A stretch of 53,052 nucleotides of DNA from Candidatus Nomurabacteria bacterium (lineage in GTDB: Bacteria; Patescibacteriota; Minisyncoccia; Phycocordibacterales; UBA9973): positions 59,058 to 112,109 of the forward strand of contig JAPLXO010000010.1 in the NCBI GenBank assembly GCA_026396065.1. Direction: 5' to 3'. The position numbers were made by a program, and so were the translations under genes. The stretch's first letter is position 1. Each line of letters begins with the position of its first letter. Positions 9,839-51,092 of this stretch are shown here, piece by piece. The notes beneath the pieces are model-generated. The model did no database searches. It saw only the letters and a program-made list of their open reading frames with translations, and was not told the DNA's origin.

Positions 9839-9852
9839 TTTTAACTAAAAAA

Positions 9853-11178
9853 ATGCAGAAAGAAAACAAAAAAGAAAATGAGTTGATGGAAAAAATAGTG
9901 AGCCTTTGTAAAAGACGCGGTTTTATTTTTCAAGGTTCAGAAATTTATGGTGGAATGGCCGGTTTTTATGATTATGGTCCACTCGGTACACTTCTTAAAA
10001 GAAATATTGAGAAATCGTGGATAAAGCAGTTTGTCGAGTTTAAAGAAAATGTATATTTGATTGATACGCCGATACTCATGCATCCTCGTGTATGGGAAGC
10101 ATCAGGGCATACGGCAGAATTCGCGGATCCTCTTGTGGAGTGTAAAAAGTGTAAAAACAAGTTTCGCGCTGATCAGTTAGATAGTGACAAATGCCCAAAT
10201 GATGGAGAAACACTTGGTGCTATTTCAAAATTCAATCTAATGCTTGAAACAAAAGTAGGAGCGTCAGAAGATACATCAATAAAAACATATCTTCGACCAG
10301 AAGAAGCACAAAATATTTTTATTGATTTCAAAAATATTGTAGATTCTTTTTCACCGAAACTTCCTTTTGGCGTGGCTCAAATCGGTAAAGCATTTCGAAA
10401 CGAAATTACCCCGCGAGATTTTATTTATCGTTTGCGTGAATTTCAAATAATGGAAATGGAATATTTTATTCACCCAGACATCGCATGGGAACCGATTTTC
10501 GATTCATTTTTGGCAGAACAAAAAGATTGGCTTGGCAGTATTGGAGTGGATATAGAAAAATTGCATCCAATGGAACATCCAGAATCTGGACGGGCGCATT
10601 ATAGTAAAAAGACAGTTGATCTCGAATTCGAATACCCATTTGGGATAAAAGAACTCACTGGCCTCGCACATCGTGGAGATTTTGATTTAAAAAAACACGA
10701 AGAATTTTCTGGAGAAAAAATGGGAATTATGGATGAGGAGAAAGGAGAAAGAGTTGTTCCTCACGTGATTGAACCGACAATCAGTGTTGATCGAGCAATT
10801 TTAGCGCTTATGGTTTCTGCTTATCGTGAAGAAATAATAGGAGAAGATACTCGTGTATATCTCAAATTTCCACCACACATCGCACCATATAAAGCGTGTG
10901 TTTCTCCGTTATTAAAAAATAAACCAGAATTACAAACAAAAGCGCGTGAAGTTTTTTCTATTCTCAAAAAAGAATTTGGTTGGATTACATATGATGACAA
11001 CGGCAACATCGGCAAACGCTACCGCCGACAAGACGAAATCGGTACACCTTGGTGTATCGTCGTCGATTTCGACACACTCACAGATGATACTGTCACTGTC
11101 CGTGATCGTGATACTGGAACTCAAGAGAGAGTGAAAGTAATTGATTTAGTTTCTTATATAAAAGAGAAGTTGAATTAA
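9853..11178 (+). CDS. glyQS: Glycine--tRNA ligase, alpha2 (homodimeric) type
   Basis: CKRRGF..SEIYGG, LRPE, GKAFRNEITP, PHVIEP and IGKRYRRQDEIGTP motifs. Confidence 0.96.
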   Translation: MQKENKKENELMEKIVSLCKRRGFIFQGSEIYGGMAGFYDYGPLGTLLKRNIEKSWIKQFVEFKENVYLIDTPILMHPRVWEASGHTAEFADPLVECKKCKNKFRADQLDSDKCPNDGETLGAISKFNLMLETKVGASEDTSIKTYLRPEEAQNIFIDFKNIVDSFSPKLPFGVAQIGKAFRNEITPRDFIYRLREFQIMEMEYFIHPDIAWEPIFDSFLAEQKDWLGSIGVDIEKLHPMEHPESGRAHYSKKTVDLEFEYPFGIKELTGLAHRGDFDLKKHEEFSGEKMGIMDEEKGERVVPHVIEPTISVDRAILALMVSAYREEIIGEDTRVYLKFPPHIAPYKACVSPLLKNKPELQTKAREVFSILKKEFGWITYDDNGNIGKRYRRQDEIGTPWCIVVDFDTLTDDTVTVRDRDTGTQERVKVIDLVSYIKEKLN

Positions 11179-11184
11179 AACTGA

Positions 11185-11643
11185 ATGAAAACCCTCACCC
11201 TCGCATTATTATTCCGTGACGAAAAAATTCTTCTCGCGATGAAGAAAAGGAAGTTTGGTGTAGGGAAGTGGAATGGGTATGGAGGAAAACTCGATGAAGG
11301 GGAAATGCCGATTGATGGACTCGTGCGGGAAATAAAAGAAGAAAGTAATTTAAATATACCGAAAGAACTTTGCAAAGAGTTAGGATATATCGATTTTTAT
11401 TTTAATGACAAAGAAGAATGGAATCAAAGAGTGATTATTTATCGTATTGATAATTTTGTTGGTGAGCCAGAAGAAACAGAGGAAATGATGCCGAAGTGGT
11501 TTCCAATTTCAGAGATTCCTTGGCATGAAATGTGGAAAGGGGACGACCAATGGATTCCATACGTAATTACAAATAAAAAATTCAAAGGAGAAGTTCATTT
11601 TTCTGAAGGTGGAGAGAAATTGGTAAGTTGTGTAGTGAAATAA
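11185..11643 (+). CDS. NUDIX hydrolase, 8-oxo-dGTP diphosphatase (MTH1-like)
   Basis: KKRKFGVGKWNGYGGK, Nudix box REIKEES, ETEEMMPKWF, MWKGD. Confidence 0.9.
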   Translation: MKTLTLALLFRDEKILLAMKKRKFGVGKWNGYGGKLDEGEMPIDGLVREIKEESNLNIPKELCKELGYIDFYFNDKEEWNQRVIIYRIDNFVGEPEETEEMMPKWFPISEIPWHEMWKGDDQWIPYVITNKKFKGEVHFSEGGEKLVSCVVK

Positions 11644-11653
11644 AAAAATCAGA

Positions 11654-13072
11654 CTATTTTTCAATAGCCTGATTATAGAATTTAATGAGTGCATCTGGAT
11701 TTATTTTTTCATATTTTTCCAATGCTTTTTTGAGTTGTGAAGGAATATTCGCATATGTTTTATACACAAGTAAAATATAACCTATGTATCCTTTTGCTTT
11801 TCCTTGGATACTACTATCTTGTAGTGATACATCTTGTTGTGCGTCAATGCAAGCATGATGCAAAGCAGAACGAATTTTCCTCTGTAATTTTTTAGGAATT
11901 GTTGGTCTAAAATAATACCAGGGCGTCCATGCTTTTAAGCAATGTCTCGCTCCAGCTATTTTGTCATCCACCATTTCTTTTAGTTCTGCTCGAGTTTTTC
12001 TGTGCCTCACTAAACGTAACCCCGTAACAAGTGGTACTTCAACTCCTACTTCGTAGATATGAATTTTCTTTTTATTGAATTTCCATATAGTAGTTTTTTC
12101 TATCGTAGCGATCACTTTACGCAATTCTTTAGAAAGCTTAACCTTGGAGAGATAAGAGTCAGTGCTAATAGTTATGTTATCAACATATACTGAAATACAT
12201 TGATGTGTGTCTGGGTAAGATTTTGGAGTTCTATATCTTAAAAAAGATTTGAAACTCGAAATCATTTTTGTGTGTGACAATACAAGTGCCATCGCAATTG
12301 GTGATGTGGGGGACCCCTGCACTAATTTGTTTTGATATGTAAGTACTTTGGACAAAATTTCAGCCATGTCATTACACAATTCGTACATTTCCTCTAGTCC
12401 GTTTGGTTTACGTATTTGAGCACGTAATGCCTTGTTTGCCTTGTTTGTGAACAATAAACGCCTTTTTTTGAATCGCAGATCTAGATAAGTTAAATCGTAC
12501 CGATTCTTACTTTCCCAGGCTTCAAAAATTGAATCGTTAGAGGTAATTTCACTTACTTTTTTGTCGACAAGTCCGTTGATTACTTCCTCGTCAACGGTGT
12601 CGTGTTTCTTTTTTAAGAACTCCCTGTGGTTTTTACTTCTCAGAAACTTTTTATATCTGAATTTGTAAAAACATAGTTCATCATATAGTAAATCTACTAG
12701 AGCATTTTTTAGTGAGAGCGAATCTACACAATGAAACGCATCTTTTAAGTCAACATCTATGATGAAGTTTGGAGTAGTGAAGACATGCGATTCTATACCT
12801 CCTAGTGTCGAGCGTTTCGGTACACCACCATAACAGTAATCGGCTATCATTGGACCTGTTGAGATCTTTGATAGGAAATTTTTGTAAATACTTTGTTGAA
12901 CTAATTTTGTTGTTTCTTTTGGTGCGTGAATAGTTCTTTTCCCGCCTGAACGTTTTGGTATCGTAAAAATTCGATATTTTTGATTCGAATATACTTCTTC
13001 CAAATGTTCGACTTTTGTGTTTGTAGCATCTGCAAGTATGCGAAATGCTTCCATAGATAGCTGTTTTTCCAT
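11654..13072 (-). CDS. Retron-like reverse transcriptase with atypical YVDN active site
   Basis: YRIFTIPKRSGGKRTIHAP, DLKDAF (aa108-113), QGSPTSP (252-258), YVDNITIS (296-303), FNKKK and the retron region-Y VTGL (349-352). Confidence 0.88.
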   Translation of the reverse strand: MEKQLSMEAFRILADATNTKVEHLEEVYSNQKYRIFTIPKRSGGKRTIHAPKETTKLVQQSIYKNFLSKISTGPMIADYCYGGVPKRSTLGGIESHVFTTPNFIIDVDLKDAFHCVDSLSLKNALVDLLYDELCFYKFRYKKFLRSKNHREFLKKKHDTVDEEVINGLVDKKVSEITSNDSIFEAWESKNRYDLTYLDLRFKKRRLLFTNKANKALRAQIRKPNGLEEMYELCNDMAEILSKVLTYQNKLVQGSPTSPIAMALVLSHTKMISSFKSFLRYRTPKSYPDTHQCISVYVDNITISTDSYLSKVKLSKELRKVIATIEKTTIWKFNKKKIHIYEVGVEVPLVTGLRLVRHRKTRAELKEMVDDKIAGARHCLKAWTPWYYFRPTIPKKLQRKIRSALHHACIDAQQDVSLQDSSIQGKAKGYIGYILLVYKTYANIPSQLKKALEKYEKINPDALIKFYNQAIEK

Positions 13073-13093
13073 TTATTTGGGTTTTACATATTT

Positions 13094-13290
13094 GTTTATT
13101 TATTTTTCAAAGAAAACCGGTCGCCGCAGATGTAGAACACCTGCGGCTCAATTCATTCTATGCACGTAGTGCATGCCTTGGTTAATATGGCATCATACCA
13201 CAACCATCTGACGTTCAAATCCATAGCTAGAAACTAACTACTTGAAATAAAGAACTATTCAATGAAATGTTCATTAATAGAAACCGGGTT
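13094..13290 (-). ncRNA. Candidate RT-associated structured ncRNA (msr-msd-like)
   Basis: Non-coding leader between the promoter and the RT ATG, with hairpins at 13255-13280, 13173-13193, 13160-13174 and 13123-13147 and imperfect terminal inverted repeats. Boundaries are approximate. Confidence 0.6.
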
Positions 13291-13296
13291 GTTTTT

Positions 13297-13325
13297 ACAA
13301 TAAACTTTTTTATATTATTTGTCAA
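13297..13325 (-). promoter_or_regulatory. Sigma70 promoter for the ncRNA-RT unit
   Basis: Minus strand TTGACA (13325-13320), 17 bp spacer, TATTGT (13302-13297). Confidence 0.7.
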
Positions 13326-13365
13326 TATTATATAATAAAGAAAATTTTATGATAGAATAGTCAGC

Positions 13366-14634
13366 ATGAAAGCTAAAAAAACAATTTTAAAAAATGGTTT
13401 GCGAGTGATAACTATACCAATGAAAGAAAGCCCGACGGTAACAGCTTTGGTATTAGTGGAAACAGGTAGTAAATATGAAACAAAAGAGATAAATGGTTTA
13501 TCTCACTTTTTGGAGCATATGTGCTTCAAAGGGACAGTGAAGCGTCCTACTGCTCGTGATATTACTACAGAGCTCGATACCATGGGCGCACAATACAACG
13601 CTTTTACTGGTCAAGAATACACAGGCTACTATGCGAAAAGTGATGCGAAACATTTCAAAAAGATTTTTGATGTAGTGAGCGATGTGTATTTAAATTCCAC
13701 TTTTCCAGAAACTGAAATGGAAAAAGAAAAAGGTGTGATTATAGAAGAAATAAATATGTATGAAGACTTACCAATGCGTCATGTGCAAGATATGATAATG
13801 GAAGTTTTGTATGGTGACCAGCCAGCCGGATGGAATATAGCAGGTCCAATAGAAAATATTAAAAAAATGAAACGCGATGATTTTGTAAAATACAAAAAAG
13901 AACAATATGTGCCGAAAGCTACGACTGTCGTCATTGCAGGTGGGGTTAGTGAGAAAGATATGATGACTGAAGTTAAAAAATATTTTAACCATTTAAAAAA
14001 TGATAAAAAATCTGGAAAAATAAAAACTATCGAGAAACAAACTACACCAAATGCAAAAATAAAATTTAAACAAACAGACCAAACACATTTTGTTTTAGGT
14101 TTTCGTTCGCTCAATGCTTTTGATAAAAAAAATGCAGTGAATTCCATGATGGCTGGGGTCCTCGGGGCAGGGATGAGCTCAAGACTTTTCCATAAACTTC
14201 GTGAAGAAATGGGTGTGTGTTATTACGTGCGTGCGAATACTGACCTGTACACTGACCATGGAGTTTTTCAAATTTCTTCTGGCGTAGACAATAAAAGAGT
14301 AAAAGAAGTTATCACTGCAATTCTTAAAGAATGTGAAAAATTAAAAAATGAACTTGTCGGAGATAAAGAATTAGCGAAAGTAAAAGAGATTTTTATTTCT
14401 GGAATGAAAATGGGGTTGGAAGCGACAGATGATGTAGCAAATTTCTACGGGGGACAAGAAGTAATGGTAAAAAAGATTGAAAGTCCTGAAGACAAAGCAA
14501 AGAAAATAAAAGCTGTAACATCCAAGCAAATCCAAGCAATGGCAAAACAAATATTCCAAAACAATAAGCTAAACCTTGCACTAATTGGTCCGTTTAATGA
14601 TCAAAAAGAATTTTTGCCGATTTTAAAGATCTAG
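13366..14634 (+). CDS. M16 family zinc peptidase (pitrilysin-like)
   Basis: GLSHFLEHM inverted zinc motif (HxxEH), NAFT, SSRLF..LREE. Confidence 0.94.
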   Translation: MKAKKTILKNGLRVITIPMKESPTVTALVLVETGSKYETKEINGLSHFLEHMCFKGTVKRPTARDITTELDTMGAQYNAFTGQEYTGYYAKSDAKHFKKIFDVVSDVYLNSTFPETEMEKEKGVIIEEINMYEDLPMRHVQDMIMEVLYGDQPAGWNIAGPIENIKKMKRDDFVKYKKEQYVPKATTVVIAGGVSEKDMMTEVKKYFNHLKNDKKSGKIKTIEKQTTPNAKIKFKQTDQTHFVLGFRSLNAFDKKNAVNSMMAGVLGAGMSSRLFHKLREEMGVCYYVRANTDLYTDHGVFQISSGVDNKRVKEVITAILKECEKLKNELVGDKELAKVKEIFISGMKMGLEATDDVANFYGGQEVMVKKIESPEDKAKKIKAVTSKQIQAMAKQIFQNNKLNLALIGPFNDQKEFLPILKI

Positions 14635-14646
14635 TTATATATAAAT

Positions 14647-14688
14647 CCCCCCTCTCCTTATTAAGGAGAGGGGGTTAGGGGGTGAGGT
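14647..14688 (+). repeat. BoxC-like palindromic repeat, copy 1
   Basis: CCCCCTCTCCTTA-T-TAAGGAGAGGGGG stem followed by tail TTAGGGGGTGAGGT. Confidence 0.85.
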
Positions 14689-14720
14689 GAATTTTGAGCT
14701 CTCTATGCTATAATATTCTC

Positions 14721-15800
14721 ATGCAAGAAAACAACAAAAGTATGGCTATTTCTATTACTACCAGCACGATGATTCGCATTGTTTTGGTTTTACTTGGTTT
14801 CTTTTTACTTTATTATTTAAGAGATTTAGTGCTTGTGATTTTGACATCTATTGTAATAGCTTCTTTTATCGGGTCTGCAAGTATTCGTATGAAAAGAATT
14901 GGTATTGGAAGGGTTTTTGGTGTAATTTTGCTGTATGTAGTAGGCCTTACTTTTCTATCGGGAGTGTTTTATCTTTTTGCACCGTTGCTCATTACAGAAA
15001 TTTATAATTTTTCTGCATTAATTTCAAATTATTTCCCAGATTCAGGTATTTTGAATTTCTTCCATAGTGATACATTTTCTGGAGCAAAAGACGTAGTGGC
15101 TAATCTTCAAAATAATTTATCTATTAGTACATTACTTACTACTTCTAAAGCTTTTGTTTCAAATTTATCTAGTGGATTTTTTAGTACATTATCTTATGCT
15201 TTTGGAAGTATTTTCAACGTAGTATTAATTGTCATAATTTCTTTTTATCTTTCTATACAAGAAAATGGTATTGAAGGATTTTTACGTGTAGTTGTACCAC
15301 AATCACATGAAGATTATGCAGTAGAACTTTGGGAACGTGTTCGCCATAAAATTGCTCTTTGGATAAAAGGACAAATGGTATTAGGTTTTATTGTAGCTAT
15401 TTTAGTCTATCTTGTGCTTTCAATTATGGGTATAAAATATGCTTTGCTTTTGGCTGTTCTTACAGGGCTTTTTGAAATCGTACCTTATGGAATGATCGTA
15501 TCTATGGTGCCGGCTATTGGCCTTGGTTATCTCTCTAGTGGATTTTCAGGGGCATTAATGGTAGGTGGTGCCTATTTTATAATTCATCAATTTGAAGCTT
15601 ATCTTTTAGCCCCACTTATTGTGAAGCGTGTTACAGGTCTTTCACCTCTACTTGTTATTTTATCTCTTTTGGTTGGTTTTGAATTGGCTGGTTTTTGGGG
15701 AGTAATACTCGCTGTTCCAGCTGCCGTATTTACAATGGAGCTCGTTAACGATATTGAAAAAAGAAAAGTATTTCTTCGAACTAGTCATGAGCAAAAATAA
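14721..15800 (+). CDS. AI-2E family transporter (PerM-like)
   Basis: Multi-TM protein with WIKGQ, IVPYG, QFEAYLLAP and GFWGVILAVP. Start moved to the ATG 6 nt after TGCTATAAT. Confidence 0.88.
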   Translation: MQENNKSMAISITTSTMIRIVLVLLGFFLLYYLRDLVLVILTSIVIASFIGSASIRMKRIGIGRVFGVILLYVVGLTFLSGVFYLFAPLLITEIYNFSALISNYFPDSGILNFFHSDTFSGAKDVVANLQNNLSISTLLTTSKAFVSNLSSGFFSTLSYAFGSIFNVVLIVIISFYLSIQENGIEGFLRVVVPQSHEDYAVELWERVRHKIALWIKGQMVLGFIVAILVYLVLSIMGIKYALLLAVLTGLFEIVPYGMIVSMVPAIGLGYLSSGFSGALMVGGAYFIIHQFEAYLLAPLIVKRVTGLSPLLVILSLLVGFELAGFWGVILAVPAAVFTMELVNDIEKRKVFLRTSHEQK

Positions 15801-17241
15801 TTTTTACATTACTACTACTCTTCCATATGTAAATGCAGATCTTCATATGGGCCATGCACTAGAATTTGTGCGTGCAGATATTATTGCGCGATATAAAAAA
15901 TTGCAGAGTTTTGATGTATTTTTTAATACTGGTACAGATGAACATGGAATGAAAATATATGAGAAGGCTGTGGCTGAAGGGAAGACGGCTCAAGAATTTG
16001 TAGACCAAAAATTTTTACATTTCAAAGATTCAGTAAAAATTTTTGGCATGTACGAAAGTACTTTACATTTTGCTCGCACGACAAATGAAAATCATATTCT
16101 CGCAGCGCAAGAATTTTGGAAAAGAGTTTATGACAATGGTTATATTTATAAAAAGAATTATGAAGCGAAATATTGCGTAGGTTGCGAAGAGACAAAAAGT
16201 GATTCTGAATTAGTAAACAATGAATGTCCTATCCACCCTGGGCGAGCACTCGAGACTATTGCTGAAGAAAATTATTTTTTCAAATATTCTGAATTCACAG
16301 ATAAACTTTTGGATTTCTATAAAAAGAATCCAAATTTCGTCGTTCCTGATTTTAGATATAACGAAATAAAATCTTTCGTAGAAAGAGGATTGCATGATTT
16401 TTCTATTTCTCGTTTGAAAGAAAAAATGCCATGGGGCATACCTGTGCCAGGAGACGAAAACCATGTGATGTATGTATGGTTCGATGCTTTGACAAATTAT
16501 ATTTCTACACTTGGGTGGCCAGAAACTTCAGGAGATTTTGAAAAATATTGGGTAAATGGAAATCCTACACAATATTGTGGTAAAGATAATCTTCGTTTTC
16601 AATCTGCAATGTGGCAAGCGATGCTAATGGCTGCCGATTTGCCAAATTCTCATCAAATAGTGATCAATGGTTTTATCACAGCTGATGGAGGAATAAAAAT
16701 GTCCAAGACATTAGGTAACGTAGTTGACCCGAAAGAAATTGTAGCTGAATATAGCACAGACGCGCTTCGATTTTTCCTTGCTAAAGAAATTTCTTCTTTT
16801 GAAGATTCACCCTTTACTATGGAGCGTTTTAAAGATTCTTATAATGCAGGACTTGCGAATGGAATAGGAAATCTCACTAGTCGTATTATGAAAATGGCAG
16901 AGACAAATTTGGAAAGCCCTACTGAAATTCCAGAAATGAAAATCTCTGAAGATTGGGAGCCAGCAATAATTGCCATGGAGAATTTTAATATTCAAGAAGC
17001 GATGAGTGTGATATTTAAACATGTGTCCGAACTCGATGAAACTATTCAAAGTAAACAACCATTTAAACTTGTAAAAACAAATAAAGAAGAAGCTGTAGAA
17101 ATTATAAAAGATTTAGTTATAAAACTTCACAATATTGCAGTGATGCTCACACCTGTGCTTCCAGAAACAAGTAAAAAAATTATCGAAATTACAAAATCCG
17201 GCAAAATGCCAGAACAACCACTCTTTTTGAGAAAAGACTAA
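15787..17241 (+). CDS. metG: Methionine--tRNA ligase (short form)
   Basis: YITTTLPYVN, HMGH, GTDEHG, YVWFDAL and KMSKT motifs. ATG at 15787. Confidence 0.96.
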   Translation: MSKNNFYITTTLPYVNADLHMGHALEFVRADIIARYKKLQSFDVFFNTGTDEHGMKIYEKAVAEGKTAQEFVDQKFLHFKDSVKIFGMYESTLHFARTTNENHILAAQEFWKRVYDNGYIYKKNYEAKYCVGCEETKSDSELVNNECPIHPGRALETIAEENYFFKYSEFTDKLLDFYKKNPNFVVPDFRYNEIKSFVERGLHDFSISRLKEKMPWGIPVPGDENHVMYVWFDALTNYISTLGWPETSGDFEKYWVNGNPTQYCGKDNLRFQSAMWQAMLMAADLPNSHQIVINGFITADGGIKMSKTLGNVVDPKEIVAEYSTDALRFFLAKEISSFEDSPFTMERFKDSYNAGLANGIGNLTSRIMKMAETNLESPTEIPEMKISEDWEPAIIAMENFNIQEAMSVIFKHVSELDETIQSKQPFKLVKTNKEEAVEIIKDLVIKLHNIAVMLTPVLPETSKKIIEITKSGKMPEQPLFLRKD

Positions 17242-18026
17242 TGAAGTATATAGATATACATTCACATTTGAATTTGGAACAGCTAAAAGTTGATCATGAG
17301 AGTGTAGTTTTTCGTATGGTAGAAAATAATGTTAGCACTATCACTATCGGTGTGGATTACGAGACTTCGAAGGAAGCTATAGAAATAGCAGGGAAATATG
17401 ATTTCATTTGGGCTGGAGTAGGACTTCATCCTACAGATAATGCGAATGAAGATTTTGATATAGAAAAATATGAAGTATTAGCACAACATAAAAAAGTCGT
17501 TTGTATTGGCGAATGTGGACTAGATTATTTTCGTGTAGTAGATGAAGCTACAAAAGAAAAACAAAAAGAGTTATTTAAGAGTCATATTGAAATTGCATTA
17601 AAAGTAGGGAAGCCACTCATGATTCACGCACGTCCATCAAAAGGAAGCCAAGATGCATATGAAGATGCACTTGAAATTTTAGAAAATTATAAAAAAGAAA
17701 ATAATTCTTTGAGTGGTAATTTTCATTTCTTTGTAGGAGATATCCCTATTGCAACACGAGTACTCGCTATTAATTTTACGATGTCTTTTGATGGACCCAT
17801 CACATTTACTAGTGATTATGATGAAGTAATAAGGTTTATACCAATAGAGTCTATAATGTCTGAGACGGATTCACCATTCGCTGCACCAGCACCATATAGA
17901 GGTAAAACTTGTGAACCATATATGGTTAGGGAAGTAGTAAAAAAAATCGCTATTTTAAAAAATTTAACCGAACACGAAGCCTCTGAAGTTATTTTTACTA
18001 ACGCAAAGCGCACCTTTCACATTTGA
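17241..18026 (+). CDS. tatD: TatD family hydrolase/DNase
   Basis: DIHSH, GLHP, IGECGLD and ETDSPF motifs. Follows metG as usual. Confidence 0.93.
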   Translation: MKYIDIHSHLNLEQLKVDHESVVFRMVENNVSTITIGVDYETSKEAIEIAGKYDFIWAGVGLHPTDNANEDFDIEKYEVLAQHKKVVCIGECGLDYFRVVDEATKEKQKELFKSHIEIALKVGKPLMIHARPSKGSQDAYEDALEILENYKKENNSLSGNFHFFVGDIPIATRVLAINFTMSFDGPITFTSDYDEVIRFIPIESIMSETDSPFAAPAPYRGKTCEPYMVREVVKKIAILKNLTEHEASEVIFTNAKRTFHI

Positions 18027-18149
18027 CAATAAGGCTTTTTCTTGCTAATTTGAATAGGTATGTTCGATATGGCGGTCATCCATATCGCATTTGCCACATT
18101 ATTATTAAAGGCAATTGTCCACAATATACATTAATTATAAATATTAAAA
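18023..18149 (+). promoter_or_regulatory. Promoter and structured leader of rpsF-ssb-rpsR
   Basis: TTGACA at 18023, 17 bp spacer, TAATTT. Hairpins CGATATGG/CCATATCG and TTGCC/GGCAA. Confidence 0.5.
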
Positions 18150-18635
18150 ATGGAAGAAAAAAACATTGATGTTGAAGTAGCAGAACCTCGTGTCTACGAA
18201 GTTGGCTATCTTTTGAGTAATGCTATAGAAGAAGCAGAAGTTCCAGTCGAATATGGTAATTTAAAAGATTTTGTCGCTTCTTTTGGGGGAGTGATTATTT
18301 CTGATGAAATGCCAAAAAAGATTGATCTCGCTTACACTATCGAAAAAGTTATAAAAAATATAAAACATAAATTTGACTCTGCATATTTTGGTTGGATTAA
18401 ATTTGAAATGACTCCTGAAAAAGTGCTTGAGCTTAAAAAGAAATTGGATCTAGATATTAAGATTGTTCGATTTATTATTATAAAGACTGTCCGTGAGAAT
18501 ACTCTCGCTGTTAAAAAGTTTGTTCGTAGTGATATCAAGAGACACACTCCAAAACTTCGCGCAGAAGGTGAAGAAGCTCCAGAAATAAATAAAGAAGAAA
18601 TCGATAAAGAAATCGATGCTATGGTGGAAGTTTAA
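18150..18635 (+). CDS. rpsF: 30S ribosomal protein S6
   Basis: YEVGYLL, LAYTI, AYFGW and VRFIIIK motifs. Synteny with ssb and rpsR. Confidence 0.9.
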   Translation: MEEKNIDVEVAEPRVYEVGYLLSNAIEEAEVPVEYGNLKDFVASFGGVIISDEMPKKIDLAYTIEKVIKNIKHKFDSAYFGWIKFEMTPEKVLELKKKLDLDIKIVRFIIIKTVRENTLAVKKFVRSDIKRHTPKLRAEGEEAPEINKEEIDKEIDAMVEV

Positions 18636-18688
18636 TATTATAAGTTAATTAAACTACATCTCAGATGTAGTTTTACTAAAACAAACAT

Positions 18689-19138
18689 ATGTATTTAAAC
18701 AAAGCAATCGTCATAGGAAATTTAACAAGAGAGCCAGAACTTAAATCATTACCATCTGGTATGAAAGTTTGTTCATTCTCTCTAGCTACAAATCGCGTTT
18801 GGAAAGATAAAAATGGTGCAAAACAAGAAGCTGCAGACTTTCACAATATTGTAGTATTCGGCCGACAAGCTGAAACTACTGCTCAATATCTTCACAAAGG
18901 AAATAGTGCACTTGTAGAAGGCAGAATGCAGACACGAAGTTGGGATGATAAAGAAGGTGTTAAAAAATACCGCACTGAAGTCATTGCTGATCGTGTGCAA
19001 TTCGGACCAAAAGGTGGAAGTGGAGGTGAAGCACCTTCGACAGGGAAAATAGCCACAGGACCAAAAGGTGACGAAAATGAAGCAGATATGATCGATTACC
19101 CAGAGGAAGATATTAACCCAGAAGACATTCCATTCTAA
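18689..19138 (+). CDS. ssb: Single-stranded DNA-binding protein
   Basis: LNKAIVIGNLTREPE, VEGRMQTRSW and C-terminal DIPF. Confidence 0.97.
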   Translation: MYLNKAIVIGNLTREPELKSLPSGMKVCSFSLATNRVWKDKNGAKQEAADFHNIVVFGRQAETTAQYLHKGNSALVEGRMQTRSWDDKEGVKKYRTEVIADRVQFGPKGGSGGEAPSTGKIATGPKGDENEADMIDYPEEDINPEDIPF

Positions 19139-19166
19139 ATTAAAAATTAACTAATAATAAATTAAA

Positions 19167-19367
19167 ATGAAACAAGATTACTTTTCATCAAACAATATAA
19201 AATTCATCGATTATAAGGATATTGAAATTTTAAAGAAATTCATTAATCCTAATGGCAAAATAATGAACCACAAGCGCACAGGTGTGACTTCAAAGAACCA
19301 ACGTTCTCTAGAAGAAGCTATTAAACGTGCTCGTTTTATGGGTCTATTACCATTCGTAGCTAGATAA
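19167..19367 (+). CDS. rpsR: 30S ribosomal protein S18
   Basis: IDYKD, GKI..RTG and AIKRARFMGLLP motifs. Confidence 0.96.
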   Translation: MKQDYFSSNNIKFIDYKDIEILKKFINPNGKIMNHKRTGVTSKNQRSLEEAIKRARFMGLLPFVAR

Positions 19368-19371
19368 AAAT

Positions 19372-20130
19372 ATGGAAAATATAAATAACAATGTAGAAGT
19401 AACACCAAAGGTAATTACTTTTAGTTCTCTTTTTATGGAAAGTTTACAGGTCTGTAAATCTTTGTTTAAAGATTATACTTCAAATGTATTACTTTTGTTG
19501 ATATTACTTATGGTACCAATTGTAAATCTTTTTGTTGCACCATTTATCATGTTTATAATTGGTAGAAAAATACAAGGAGAAAATAATCCATTTACTGGAT
19601 CTGTTAAATTATATTTTAGTAAATTTTGGAATATAGTTTCACTTATGTTTGTTTATTTAGGAATGATATTTTGGAAGACAATTATTTGGATTTTATTACC
19701 AATAGTATTTTGGGGATTATTAAAAGTTATAGGTGTACATTCTGCAATCATGAGTAGTATCCTAAATACATTGATACCAATACTTATTATAGTATTTCCT
19801 CTTATCTTTATGTTGAAGTATTTCTGTGGTTGGAGATTTGCTGTAAATGTATTACTCTTTGAAGATAAAAAAAATAAAGATGCATTAAATAGAAGTTGGG
19901 AACTTACTGACAATCGTAAATGGGATATCTTTTTTTATTTTTTAATATTAGGACTTATTGCTGTTATTTATTCTGTTATTCTAATAGTAACTATTAGTTC
20001 TATATTTAGATTGGATTCTGTTTTAGATAAACATACTCTCTCTATTATTAGATCAGTAATAACTTCTCCAATATCATTTATAATTACTACCTTCTTTACT
20101 ATTTTATATTTTAAATTTAAAAATAAGTAA
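19372..20130 (+). CDS. Multi-pass membrane protein (DUF975/GDPD membrane-domain-like)
   Basis: About 5-6 TM helices and ALNRSWELT motif. Confidence 0.7.
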   Translation: MENINNNVEVTPKVITFSSLFMESLQVCKSLFKDYTSNVLLLLILLMVPIVNLFVAPFIMFIIGRKIQGENNPFTGSVKLYFSKFWNIVSLMFVYLGMIFWKTIIWILLPIVFWGLLKVIGVHSAIMSSILNTLIPILIIVFPLIFMLKYFCGWRFAVNVLLFEDKKNKDALNRSWELTDNRKWDIFFYFLILGLIAVIYSVILIVTISSIFRLDSVLDKHTLSIIRSVITSPISFIITTFFTILYFKFKNK

Positions 20131-20160
20131 TATTTATTAAATTAATTTATAAAATTCACA

Positions 20161-20202
20161 AAAAAATCCCTTTCAGCTTGTTTAGAGCTAAAAGGGATTT
20201 TT
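20161..20202. terminator. Bidirectional intrinsic terminator
   Basis: AAAAATCCCTTT-CAGCT...AGCT-AAAAGGGATTTTT between convergent genes. Confidence 0.75.
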
Positions 20203-20224
20203 ATTTTTGATAGGAGAGGTTAAT

Positions 20225-20746
20225 TTAATTCTCCTCCTGTTTTTCCATGAAAACATGGCTACCTATTAAGAGCAAATGCCCCATATTTAATTGCAAAACC
20301 ACAATTACCAATTTACTTTGGGAATCTGTGATTAATGATAAACGGTGAAGTTTCTCGTTTATTAAAACATAAACATGAGCATTGGTATTATTCTTGTTCA
20401 TACCTTTTTTCACGAAATTTTTAATAATTGATATTCCTTCAAAATAATTGTAAAGTTTGTGCACTCCTTTGTCTTTAGATTCTTCTATCACTGTCCTGTG
20501 TGATACACCATCTACAACTGGGCTGTAGCTGTCAGTTACAAAACCATCAAATTTTGGAATTATCTGACCATCAAATGGTTCGTACACATTCTCTGCAATA
20601 AAGAGATCGTATTGCTCAGATACCTCTTTGAAGAAGCAATGAACGTTTTCTTTACTAATTTTAAAGTCTTTAGTTTGACCTTCGATCCTTAGTTGTCCTA
20701 TGGGAACTAAAGTACCAGTTTCTGGGGAAAAGATTTCTTCTGCCAT
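20225..20746 (-). CDS. Hypothetical protein (173 aa)
   Basis: Open ORF with its own promoter (TTGACT 20944-20939, TATAAT 20922-20917) and leader hairpin. No family recognised. Confidence 0.7.
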   Translation of the reverse strand: MAEEIFSPETGTLVPIGQLRIEGQTKDFKISKENVHCFFKEVSEQYDLFIAENVYEPFDGQIIPKFDGFVTDSYSPVVDGVSHRTVIEESKDKGVHKLYNYFEGISIIKNFVKKGMNKNNTNAHVYVLINEKLHRLSLITDSQSKLVIVVLQLNMGHLLLIGSHVFMEKQEEN

Positions 20747-20954
20747 GATTTTTGCTTGTTAAATTTGTTTTTAATTATTAGTATTTATCAACCTTAACTA
20801 AGGTAAACAGCTTCTATAATACAAATATAGGGGAGCACACTGGAAAGAATTTTTCCATCCAAAGTGCTCACCATATTTGAAAACAAATTATTTTTCAAAG
20901 TTCTTTATTTTACGTTATTATATAGATAAAATGGAAAAAGTCAATGTATCTTAA

Positions 20955-20991
20955 AAACAAAAAAACTCCCAACTGAGAGTTTTTTTTGTTT
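20955..20991 (-). terminator. Intrinsic terminator after efp
   Basis: AAACAAAAAAACTC...GAGTTTTTTTTGTTT inverted repeat. Confidence 0.65.
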
Positions 20992-21006
20992 ACTTTTTTA
21001 TATAAT

Positions 21007-21585
21007 TTATGCTCTTTCTACGTAGTCTCCAGTTTCGGTATTTATTACAATAGTATCACCTTCATTTATAAACATTGGAGCAGTGACTGATGCGCCGTTT
21101 TCTAGAGTAATATATTTATTTCCACCTTTTGAAGTATCTCCGCGGACTGCAGGAGGGGCTTCTTTGACTTTGAAATTCATTTTGATAGGAAGCTTCAAAC
21201 CAATTGTTTGCTCTTCGCCATCATTATCCCAAACCAAAGCTGTGACATTTTCATTTTCTTTTAAAAATTTAGTTGTGTTGCCAAGGAGTGTTTCATCGAG
21301 TTTGAAACGATTTGCTTTGTTACCAATTTCACAAAACCAATATTCACCTTTATTGTGATAAAGGAAAGTGACTTCACGTTTTTCGATTTCAGCTTCGTCT
21401 GCTTTATCAGAGACGTGATAAGTAGCAGGGAAGACCTTACCAGAAATGAGACTACGAAGCTTCACTTGGTTTTGAGGTTTTCTTTGTTGAGTACGAGCTA
21501 CGTGTGATTCTACCACTTCACATGGTTCATCATCATGTAATATTATCTTTTTCTCTCTTATTTCACTGTATTCTAGTGTTGCCAT
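21007..21585 (-). CDS. efp: Elongation factor P with divergent tip loop
   Basis: VKLRSLISG, FLKEN, PAVRGDT, LENGASVTAPMFINEGD and TETGDYVERA motifs. Confidence 0.93.
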   Translation of the reverse strand: MATLEYSEIREKKIILHDDEPCEVVESHVARTQQRKPQNQVKLRSLISGKVFPATYHVSDKADEAEIEKREVTFLYHNKGEYWFCEIGNKANRFKLDETLLGNTTKFLKENENVTALVWDNDGEEQTIGLKLPIKMNFKVKEAPPAVRGDTSKGGNKYITLENGASVTAPMFINEGDTIVINTETGDYVERA

Positions 21586-21602
21586 AAATGTATTTACCCC
21601 AA

Positions 21603-21650
21603 AACCCCACCCCTAGCCCCTCCCCAAATTTGAAGATTTTAGAGAGGGGA
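21603..21650 (-). repeat. BoxC-like palindromic repeat, copy 2 (left flank of DUF559 gene)
   Basis: Reverse complement: TCCCCTCTCTAAAAT...ATTTGGGGAGGGG followed by tail CTAGGGGTGGGGTT. Confidence 0.85.
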
Positions 21651-21658
21651 ATATTGTG

Positions 21659-21997
21659 TTAACATTTTTTAATTTCAATTTTTATTTTTGCTAAAACTTT
21701 TTTTAGATTATTTTCTACTTCAGAATTCCAGAATCTAATAACTTTTATATTTTTTGAATTCAAGTATTCTGTACGCATTTTGTCGTATTCTTGATTTTCT
21801 TTATGAATTTCACCATCTAGTTCTATTGCGAGTTTTATTTTCGGTGCATAAAAATCTAAGATAAATTTATCTATTGGGTGCTGTCTTCTGAATGTTATTC
21901 CAATTTTATCTTTACGTAATTCTTCCCAAAGAATTTTTTCTGCTTCAGTTGCTTCTTTTCGTAAGTAACGAGCCTTTGGAACTATTGTCACTTTCAT
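21659..21997 (-). CDS. DUF559 / Vsr-like endonuclease domain protein
   Basis: ARYLRKEATEAEKILWEELR, FRRQHPI, ILDFY, IELDGEIH and VIRFWNSEV motifs. Confidence 0.92.
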   Translation of the reverse strand: MKVTIVPKARYLRKEATEAEKILWEELRKDKIGITFRRQHPIDKFILDFYAPKIKLAIELDGEIHKENQEYDKMRTEYLNSKNIKVIRFWNSEVENNLKKVLAKIKIEIKKC

Positions 21998-22016
21998 GAT
22001 TTAATTATAGCATTCA

Positions 22017-22062
22017 CCCCTCTCTATTTTTACAAAAAATGGGGAGGGGCAGGGGTGGGGTT
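22017..22062 (+). repeat. BoxC-like palindromic repeat, copy 3 (right flank of DUF559 gene)
   Basis: CCCCTCTCTATTTTT-ACA-AAAAATGGGGAGGGG followed by tail CAGGGGTGGGGTT. Confidence 0.85.
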
Positions 22063-22074
22063 GAATGCGTTGGG

Positions 22075-23130
22075 TTATTCCCCAGCACTAGTGACTTGGA
22101 TTTCTCCGAAGCGGTGTTCGATTTCTTTCTTGATTTCTTTAGCTACTTTAGTATTTTCTTTTAGCCATGTGCGTGTAGCATCATAACCACGTCCCATTGA
22201 AATTTTATTTCCTTCTTTATCTTTCATACTGTATGAAGCTCCGGACTTTTCAATAATGCCGAGCTTTTCACCGAGAGCCATAAGTTCACCTTCGTGTGAA
22301 ATACCTTCACCGTATATAATATCAAATTCTGTTTGCTTGAATGGAGCTGCTACTTTATTCTTCACTACTTTCACACGAGTGCGTCCGCCGACTACTTCTT
22401 CACCTTTTTTAATTTGCGCAATTCTGCGAATATCCATACGCACTGATGTGTAGAATTTTAACGCCTTTCCTCCTGGTGTAGTTTCAGGATTTCCGAACAT
22501 CACACCGATTTGCATACGAATTTGGTTTATGAAGATTACGACAGTTTTAGATTTTGCGACGATAGCAGTGAGTTTGCGAAGCGCGTGACTCATCAATCGA
22601 GCTTGTCTTCCTACATGAGCTTGGCCCATATCACCCTCTATTTCATCTTTTGGAGTAAGTGCTGCTACGGAGTCGATGACGATGACATCGATTTTTCCAG
22701 AGCGGACTAATGATTCAGTAATTTCTAAACCTTGTTCACCTGTGTCTGGTTGAGACAGGAGTAGATCATCAATTTTTACACCGAGTGCACGAGCATATAC
22801 AGGATCCATTGCATGTTCTGCATCAATATACGCACATACACCACCTTTTTTTTGTGCTTCAGCTACGATGTGTAGGGCTAGTGTAGTTTTTCCAGATGAT
22901 TCTGGACCAAAGATTTCAAGGATTCTTCCACGAGGTACTCCACCGATACCGAGAGCCATATCGAGGCCGAGAGAACCAGTAGGGATGACGTCTACATCTA
23001 CTTTTGGCTTTTCACCAAGCTTCATTATAGAACCTTCACCGAATTTTGCTTGAATCGCTTTGAGTGTATCATCGAGTCCTCGGTCGTTCATTGTCTCACT
23101 ATTGCCTGCTTTTTTTGGTTTTTTTATCAT
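22075..23130 (-). CDS. recA: Recombinase RecA
   Basis: [31 protein letters not shown] and VKNKVAAPF motifs. Confidence 0.99.
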
Positions 23131-23137
23131 TTGATTT

Positions 23138-23482
23138 TTAATAAATTAACTTATAAATTTTCTCATCACTATGCCCAAACTTGTCGACTGCTTTTATCTC
23201 TATTATATTATAACCAGAAAGTAAGGCAATTGTTTCATTAAAATCACCTTTTTGATCGACTGAAATTTCTCTACCGTCTAGTATTACTTGGGTAGCATTT
23301 TTTGCGTTTCCTGTAATGTTTACTATGTTATTTTCTACTTTTGCACCATCTACTAAATTCACATTTCTAATTTTTACTCCAAAAATCAAGTCTTTTGACC
23401 GAAAAAAAACAAAAATAAGTATAAAAACAAATAATAGTACAAGAGAGCTAATTTTTAATATTTTTTTTACACCTTGTTTCAT
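23138..23482 (-). CDS. Small membrane-anchored Ig-like protein
   Basis: N-terminal TM helix and beta-rich domain ([25 protein letters not shown]). Start placed at the ATG just after the ftsK stop. Confidence 0.7.
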
Positions 23483-50989: not shown

Positions 50990-51045
50990 GTTTTTACCTC
51001 TGCATAACTAATTAGTCAAATTGTCTAGGGGCTGTATTGTTTTGC

Positions 51046-51092
51046 ACCCCCCCCCCAACCCCTCCCCATTTTTTATAAAAATAGAGAGGGGA
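51046..51092 (-). repeat. BoxC-like palindromic repeat, copy 6
   Basis: 51059-51091 matches the reverse complement of 22017-22049 at 32 of 33 nt. Confidence 0.88.

Follow-up and report, generated by a model that had tools for sequence, protein, structure and literature searches.

A small nuclease gene of the DUF559 family, located between efp and recA in a Candidatus Nomurabacteria bacterium, is bracketed by inverted copies of a repeat with the layout of the BoxC/triplex-motif (TM) family, and comparison of the sequences across genomes suggests that the DUF559 enzyme likely spreads this repeat. The gene and its two ends, ~455 bp in total and referred to here as the cassette, lie in a window of 53,052 nucleotides, the whole stretch of DNA that was analyzed, on contig C6 of an 800 kb genome (G000). 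That the cassette is a mobile unit we consider highly probable, and that the nuclease acts on its own ends is a prediction that we regard as probable. The pairing joins two orphans, the BoxC/PIT/TM repeat and DUF559/YcjD, a protein with a solved structure and, in the literature covered, no demonstrated substrate. To our knowledge, no partner protein has been known for the BoxC repeat since the 1990s.

The recA gene, the DUF559 gene, and efp are all encoded on the minus strand, with the DUF559 gene in the middle. The original prediction described this gene as bracketed by inverted hairpins with G-rich tails facing outward, and both points hold: the efp-side end lies 9 nt from the stop codon, the recA-side end lies 19 nt from the ATG, and the two G-rich tails are on opposite strands, each with its 3′ end outward. 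Read on the strand whose 3′ end points off the gene, each end consists of a 9-nt C-arm, a 15-nt inner stem-loop, a 9-nt G-arm, a linker (3 nt at the efp side, 2 nt at the recA side), and a 9-nt G-tail. At both ends the G-tail mirrors the G-arm, and two T:G wobbles per end fall on the G-tail strand (minus at the efp side, plus at the recA side). This order of C-stem, loop, G-stem, linker, and mirrored second G-stem is the BoxC/TM layout and bears out the kinship with BoxC that had been proposed. Together, the ends make up an inverted pair of 44 nt with 70% complementarity, which rises to 82% in the outer 22 nt.

Features of the cassette, its surroundings, and related repeat copies in the same genome. 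Positions are those of the window unless a contig is given.
Feature	Position	Strand	Remarks
efp	21007-21585	-	host gene downstream of the cassette; ORF call and Pfam
recA	22075-23130	-	host gene upstream of the cassette; ORF call and Pfam
DUF559 (YcjD-type) Vsr-fold nuclease gene	21659-21997	-	112 aa; Pfam, predicted fold, conserved residues
Downstream (efp-side) end	21605-21649	-	tail 21605-21613, hairpin 21617-21649; pattern, folding, alignment
Upstream (recA-side) end	22017-22060	+	hairpin 22017-22049, tail 22052-22060; pattern, folding, alignment
7-bp inverted pair around the recA-side end	22010-22016 / 22062-22068	.	GCATTCA / TGAATGC
Extended -10-like motif TGCTATAAT	22004-22012	-	6 nt ahead of the DUF559 ATG
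Solo copy of the recA-side end	51045-51091	+	hairpin one base off that of the cassette
Solo copy of another repeat subfamily (short-loop type)	14647-14687	-	G000 C6:73704-73744
Gene-less mini	G000 C3:16411-16516		both end types of the cassette, arranged as in the cassette
Pair of the cassette's end types enclosing an unrelated 81-aa ORF	G000 C5:44955-45490 (L064)		ORF without a Pfam match

The hairpin pattern matched three times in the window and not once in 100 shuffles. A literal version of the pattern with a gap of 0-12 nt gave 0 matches because the two 9-nt arms stand 15 nt apart. The recA-side end folds with a z of -5.7 on the plus strand. Folding is only weak at the efp-side end, where the better of the two strands reaches z -2.05; a purine-motif intrastrand triplex is predicted for this end. 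The 7-bp inverted pair said to enclose the recA-side copy is present as described. It is absent from six other aligned ends and is therefore likely local to this copy. The motif TGCTATAAT might serve as a leaderless promoter for the DUF559 gene; it was not listed by a sigma-70 promoter scan, and a similar spacing was seen in only 14 of 49 Patescibacteria cassettes. A check for a terminator role of the ends returned no terminator-like site within 21500-22200, and the four matches of an Rfam search of 20700-23200 were weak and did not come close to a gathering score.

The 112-aa ORF matches Pfam DUF559 (PF04480) with an E value of 1.1e-33 (115.8 bits against a cut-off of 20.6), and its other Pfam matches are to related nucleases only. 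Its 80.7 bits against PRK09767 lie below the NCBIfam equivalog cut-off of 218 bits. The structure model (pLDDT 90.7) is closest in fold to NGO0050 (PDB 3hrl; TM-score 0.76, sequence E 1e-18), followed by the catalytic domain of I-Bth0305I (3r3p; 0.62) and, more weakly, by Vsr (1vsr; 0.48), in keeping with the earlier description as a Vsr-like nuclease. Among 151 sequences chosen by similarity, residues E20, D48, E59, D61, H65, D72, and R75 are conserved in 150-151, with D48, E59, H65, and R75 invariant (151/151), and the catalytic residues are intact in all 28 of the 28 in-frame fusions described below. The D48-to-H65 spacing of 17 residues equals that of D196 to H213 in I-Bth0305I, and the predicted site of VsrA (E73/D102/D115/H119/D124) maps by spacing on E20/D48/D61/H65/D72. 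A homodimer prediction scored 0.08 against a mark of 0.42 and does not count as evidence either way. By fold match and residues, the protein is a predicted PD-(D/E)XK-type Vsr-fold nuclease and not a HUH/Y1 transposase.

The association of gene and repeat was assessed on 145 DUF559 loci, comprising 36 from this genome and its relatives, 80 from an all-species scan, taken as the best of at least 598, and 29 from a 201-genome phylum draw; leaving out 5 duplicates and 8 loci with short flanks gave 132, the window included. A motif-free inverted-end score was obtained by aligning the upstream flank to the reverse complement of the downstream flank, with a threshold of 30. This threshold was reached, across phyla, by 88 of the 132 DUF559 loci, which are best-scoring relatives, rich in CPR, and not independent, as against 2 of 28 GIY-YIG loci (30 fetched, 2 left out for short flanks) and a single one of the 124 control windows displaced outward by 700 nt. 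The remaining 44 loci, a third of the set, scored below 30 and have no inverted pair. When each end was ranked against all 132, its own other end came first in 44 cases and among the top five in 75. Several of the small GIY-YIG control genes (L083-L112) gave inverted-end scores of 26-34, which fits Ssn-like hairpin flanks. A tail-and-hairpin detector found both ends in 15 of 34 cases and one end in 31 of 34 and recovered only 16 of 30 GIY-YIG genes; it was conservative and was therefore replaced by the motif-free test. Applied to the 716 ORFs of G000, this conservative detector reported an inverted pair only at the DUF559 gene of the window.

The association is also seen at the level of whole genomes, in favor of the original prediction. 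Of the 23 genus genomes in which DUF559 has a strong match, 19 show the strict repeat pattern, compared with 5 of the 14 that lack such a match (p 0.006, with kin not independent). These five of the 37 genus genomes hold 1 to 6 copies each, and four of the 37 have a DUF559 gene without the strict pattern. Strong matches are patchy (25 of 61 genomes), and all nine of the 61 genomes with at least 7 repeat copies carry one. At 28 of the 132 loci, the DUF559 domain is part of a long ORF; 24 of these reach the inverted-end threshold of 30. The 27 long-ORF hosts scanned include leuS (3), riboflavin synthase (3), tgt, thrS, cysS, and purL, as well as recG, Elp3, ygiQ, and methyltransferases. Riboflavin synthase carries an in-frame cassette in three separate genomes (L198, L246, L194) and is a possible recurrent target. 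In E. coli, the 3′ end of the homologue is marked by a degenerate hairpin, and a strict TM follows ~185 nt downstream, with none upstream; the repeats at the Neisseria homologue are in direct orientation. A DNA search of E. coli genomes gave no match, a phage search gave two weak matches, and a plasmid collection gave 44 records, of which at least four among the 20 listed were of chromosome size.

The ends track the lineage of the nuclease. Ends were shared by 82% of the 49 pairs with at least 70% protein identity and by 1% of the 2835 pairs below 40%, and end similarity correlated with protein identity (Mantel rho 0.20, p 0.001). For genomes that hold several cassettes, ends were compared within and between genomes, and the cassette of the closest protein from a different genome surpassed the best same-genome cassette in the likeness of its ends in 17 of 19 cases. 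Such comparison shows common descent of gene and ends, which speaks for apparent joint travel and neither for binding nor for specificity. The relation between tail and arm was examined on a set of 151 cassettes, which yielded 61 non-redundant ends. The tail mirrors the arm at 8/8 positions in 41 of these 61 (mean 7.52 against 6.46 when permuted, p 0.0005), mirror orientation prevails over direct orientation by 40 to 2, and diagnostic tail and arm positions covary in 26 of 27 copies in G000. This covariation is what a putative triplex would require. Stem T:G wobbles number 21 on the G-tail strand and 1 on the other strand, and those on the G-tail strand are equal at upstream (10) and downstream (11) ends. 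As the bias is present at both ends, though the sense strand differs, it points to the DNA strands of the element and not to mRNA; after clustering of the proteins at 60% identity it amounts to only 7 to 1 (p 0.07). Perfect stems were found in 27 of 42 and 32 of 47.

A pattern search identified 37 copies of the repeat in G000, belonging to several subfamilies, most of them solo and intergenic. In-frame copies lie in topA, atpG, ileS, ligA, uvrA, rsmA, rnhA, valS, and a phosphoglucosamine mutase-like gene. Six of these genes were aligned with 3 to 5 orthologues each, drawn from five relatives, which revealed that the repeat copies are absent from the relatives and are placed in variable stretches. 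Several in-frame copies take the place of host codons rather than adding to them; the net gain is ~0 to 13 codons at six sites and larger at the compound atpG site, the distance to the five relatives being too great for junctions to be placed at single-base resolution. The ligA loops of two relatives, G029 and G027 (L118, L121), contain other short inserts, which are alike and unrelated to the repeat, and one of them occupies the same loop as a G000 copy. Two further arrangements of the cassette's end types are listed in the table, the gene-less mini on C3 and the pair around an 81-aa ORF on C5, the latter being a possible cargo swap. The sole other strong DUF559 gene of the genome (C4:50511-50882) is 39% identical to that of the window and is framed by a different repeat subfamily. 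The G-tail strand showed no preference for leading or lagging strand in G000 (13 vs 20, p 0.30). In four DNA sequencing runs, one joint skips the DUF559 gene; its 12 linker letters match the mini on C3, and the joint is therefore not independent evidence.

The recA-efp spacer provides a view of how such cassettes come and go. Among 30 loci examined, G000 included, recA stands directly before efp in 21 genomes, 8 of which hold such hairpins in the spacer, compared to a background of 25 in 703 spacers in G000; many of the remaining recA-efp spacers measure only 22-66 nt. A DNA search of 212 genus genomes gave three close relatives (G305, G306, and G387) in which the efp part is 94-98% identical. 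Sites without the cassette, which the original prediction had named as a check in relatives, were found here. The G305 spacer contains no DUF559 gene; immediately behind the recA stop it carries a solo hairpin, which is in the same orientation and comes from another subfamily. In G306 and G387 (L251:1727-2925, L252), short palindromes in the spacer frame a Y1 (IS200-like/RAYT-type) transposase gene; this unit also has a 137-aa ORF and represents a hairpin element of another kind at this hot spot. All three relatives have a common 61-nt spacer before efp, of which G000 retains ~10 nt, leaving ~50 nt of host spacer missing at this site. No target duplication was detectable at the recA-efp site by comparison with the three relatives.

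The sister of the window's nuclease (support 95/90; 77% identical over the core) is found in G305 at another site, where G000 has another gene. Since matching ends accompany the closest relatives of the nuclease at different sites in related bacteria, the gene likely travels together with its ends as a unit. Arrival at one site appears to have been repeated: a clade of the three same-sense recA-efp cassettes was rejected (p-AU 0.025), and another six cassettes occupy this spacer in the opposite sense, in a tree that is elsewhere mostly unresolved (4 of 28 branches starred). The metG-tatD spacer, empty in this window, holds cassettes of four nuclease clades in relatives. The 54 cassettes with both ends defined show neither target duplication (direct flank match 4.5 for own flanks vs 4.2 for crossed flanks, p 0.25; a single 18-nt match falls within a nested repeat) nor fixed terminal bases, nor a fixed motif outside the ends. 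The cassettes thus lack these two marks of an IS or MITE with a DDE transposase, such as ISL3. Two unpublished genomes, G312 and G313, were left out of all claims. Three spacers in the 13 kb from a glyS-like gene to recA (~9850-23130) take 17 of the 46 cassettes of the tree; glyS and M16 peptidase are what we take to be the names of such sites. A search for an origin or terminus mark near this cluster located dnaA on another contig and found no dif site.

Based on these findings, our current hypothesis is that the nuclease cassette moves as a unit, the enzyme recognizing the folded single-stranded end of its own lineage and cutting nearby, with insertion left to host repair; we consider this reading somewhat more probable than not. 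When single-stranded, the strand with its 3′ end directed outward would fold into a hairpin with a third strand, and the single-stranded state could arise from replication, transcription, or DNA uptake. The DUF559 protein would then bind and nick at the folded end, and host recombination or microhomology repair would insert a cassette, a mini, or one end, deleting some host bases in the process. Solo repeats would be non-autonomous by-products. We know of no way for a hydrolytic nuclease to rejoin DNA, and host repair would for this reason be needed to finish the insertion. Insertion by host repair fits both the lost host bases and the missing target duplications. To the specific route, a single-strand nick followed by host repair, we give a little less than an even chance.

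Other explanations place the nuclease in a different role. In a homing scheme, the enzyme would make double-strand breaks at or beside solo or gene-less repeats, and recombination between repeats would copy the cassette in, as I-Bth0305I does for an intron, this enzyme being the second-best fold match with the identical 17-residue D-to-H spacing. The re-use of sites is in line with this, both the enrichment of hairpins in the recA-efp spacer and the four nuclease clades at metG-tatD, as is the G305 solo directly past the recA stop in the same orientation; however, that solo belongs to another subfamily, and the re-use is unspecific, with a Y1-transposase unit at the same place in two close relatives. 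The 112-aa protein also has no counterpart of the N-terminal DNA-binding region described for I-Bth0305I, double-strand cuts at 37 genomic copies would presumably be costly, and in-frame solos in genes that are empty in relatives go unexplained. We judge homing rather unlikely. Alternatively, the DUF559 gene could be cargo, with ends that form a MITE-like element moved in trans by an IS transposase (e.g., of ISL3) or a Y1/RAYT enzyme. In its favor, the unrelated 81-aa ORF on C5 is enclosed by both end types of the cassette, and Y1 transposases do occur in the genus at the recA-efp site. Against it stand the 54 cassettes without target-site duplication or fixed terminal bases, the ends that follow the DUF559 lineage across hosts, and catalytic residues kept even in in-frame fusions; in addition, TM repeats are without a link to transposons, phages, or plasmids in the account of Holder et al. 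2015 (PMC4666352) as covered here. These observations make cargo a very unlikely explanation.

The nuclease could also be a host repair or maintenance enzyme, which performs Vsr-like T:G nicking or resolves folded repeats, and around which repeats gather or are kept in check rather than spread. Caulobacter VsrA, which has a DUF559 domain, causes an SOS response in the absence of a cytosine methyltransferase (PMC12907096), modulation of transformation by SsnA is of use to the host (PMC11893778), and the cassette stems carry T:G wobbles, the mismatch on which Vsr acts. Most stems are perfect, though, so that T:G is not required, and a resident repair function sits poorly with a gene that is patchy among genomes, occupies many sites in both orientations, and arrived independently at one site. 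In-frame insertion in leuS, tgt, thrS, purL, cysS, and riboflavin synthase argues in the same direction. We hold a host repair role to be quite unlikely and continue to favor spread of the repeat by the DUF559 enzyme.

The closest described repeat is BoxC/PIT/TM. Holder et al. 2015 (PMC4666352) define TM/BoxC as a C-stem, a loop, a G-stem, a loop, and a second G-stem, and count 3610 copies in 262 genomes with no function assigned; the TMECO triplex formed in vitro by CD and NMR, and a stable triplex in vivo was unsupported. In the text of PMC4666352 covered here, no partner enzyme is named ('nuclease' and 'ycjD' have 0 word-start matches). The ends of the window follow the stem-loop-stem-linker-second G-stem plan of TMECO and resemble BoxC/PIT/TM in their dispersed copies, inverted pairs of two end types, patchy copy number, and variable flanks. 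Unlike in TMECO, the stems are longer and A/T-extended, and copies also lie in frame in genes, whereas TMECO is described as always intergenic in E. coli K-12 (PMC4666352). The strict TMECO consensus, with a first loop of 3-6 nt, gave 0 matches in G000, and the repeats are of the same class and a different subfamily. In Rickettsia, palindromic elements are found in frame in surface loops of housekeeping proteins. The repeats described here are much shorter (~36-45 nt) and are linked to a candidate nuclease, and whole gene cassettes insert in frame as well.

For the mechanism, SsnA is the best published model. Binding of this 94-aa nuclease to its flanking hairpin requires ssDNA and is restricted to one strand, and cleavage takes place next to the hairpin (Chenal et al. 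2025, PMC11893778). As in Ssn-NTS/SRM, a small single-domain hydrolytic nuclease gene is flanked by its own hairpin repeats, with many solo copies and lineage-specific ends (PMC11893778), and by analogy we infer the same logic, including strand-specific recognition of ssDNA, for the DUF559 cassette, with another fold and a triplex end. For site-specific cutting of ssDNA near its own repeat, the strand-biased wobbles and the co-descent of ends and nuclease offer support that is only indirect. The two systems differ in that Ssn is a GIY-YIG protein (cd10448) and the cassette nuclease has the Vsr-fold PD-(D/E)XK domain without a GIY-YIG domain, in the mirror tail carried by DUF559 ends, and in that activity is demonstrated for Ssn and predicted here. 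DUF559, Vsr, and triplex have 0 matches in the covered text of PMC11893778.

The original prediction had likened the cassette to a RAYT-REP system, and this analogy is loose. Like RAYT/TnpA-REP (Quentin et al. 2018, PMC6006769), the gene lies between inverted hairpins with one repeat family per enzyme type, and there are many genomic copies, here solos and paired copies, where REPs are found as many solos and doublets (PMC6006769). This part of the comparison, cognate inverted hairpins in many copies, stands. It fails in that no HUH/Y1 transposase (PF01797) is among the Pfam matches of the Vsr-like protein, the GT[AG]G guide at the hairpin foot is absent at both window ends, and the DUF559 cassette appears to move as a unit, unlike REPtrons, which are reported to be immobile as a unit (PMC6006769). 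Ssn-SRM is the closer published model, and the cassette is a member of neither system.

With EDxHD homing endonucleases such as I-Bth0305I (Taylor et al. 2011, PMC3239194), the nuclease has in common the catalytic fold, a similar Asp-His-Asp placement, and selfish behavior. Unlike these enzymes, it is a stand-alone 112-aa ORF in a spacer, with no N-terminal DNA-binding region, intron, or intein, and unlike I-Bth0305I as described there, it is bounded by repeats and has many target sites. YcjD, NGO0050, and Caulobacter VsrA (PMC12907096) belong to the same DUF559 family. VsrA is tied genetically to a cytosine methyltransferase in Caulobacter, and its account in PMC12907096, as far as covered here, does not mention flanking repeats of the kind described for the window cassette. 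In addition, DUF559 was reported as enriched among predicted inversion targets (PMC9881135).

A search of largely open-access literature, at the level of titles and abstract openings, returned no report of DUF559 paired with these repeats. If the proposed pairing is correct, intrastrand triplex DNA would gain a biological role, and hairpin-repeat systems would have a third enzyme chemistry, after HUH and GIY-YIG. It would also explain why housekeeping proteins contain short in-frame inserts and DUF559 'domains' and would reveal a family of tiny nucleases with lineage-specific targets. More speculatively, and with considerable doubt on our part, DUF559 cassettes may constitute an undescribed, transposase-free mobile class, in which a lineage-specific, triplex-guided, single-strand nuclease of 110 residues would read a three-stranded DNA fold at its own ends. 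Through break-and-repair, it would spread cassettes, minis, and single ends, also into essential genes and in frame, with BoxC/TM repeats as the footprints.

Other features of the region include a 472-aa reverse transcriptase (window 11654-13072, minus strand; Pfam RVT_1) with a weak, below-cut-off match to the retron St85 RT. The ~290-nt spacer upstream of it (13073-13365) could hold a non-coding RNA. Upstream of the window, C6 contains a run of N that is read as X in the ORF at C6:56883-57305, and the ORF just after this run has a start that resembles a serine recombinase.
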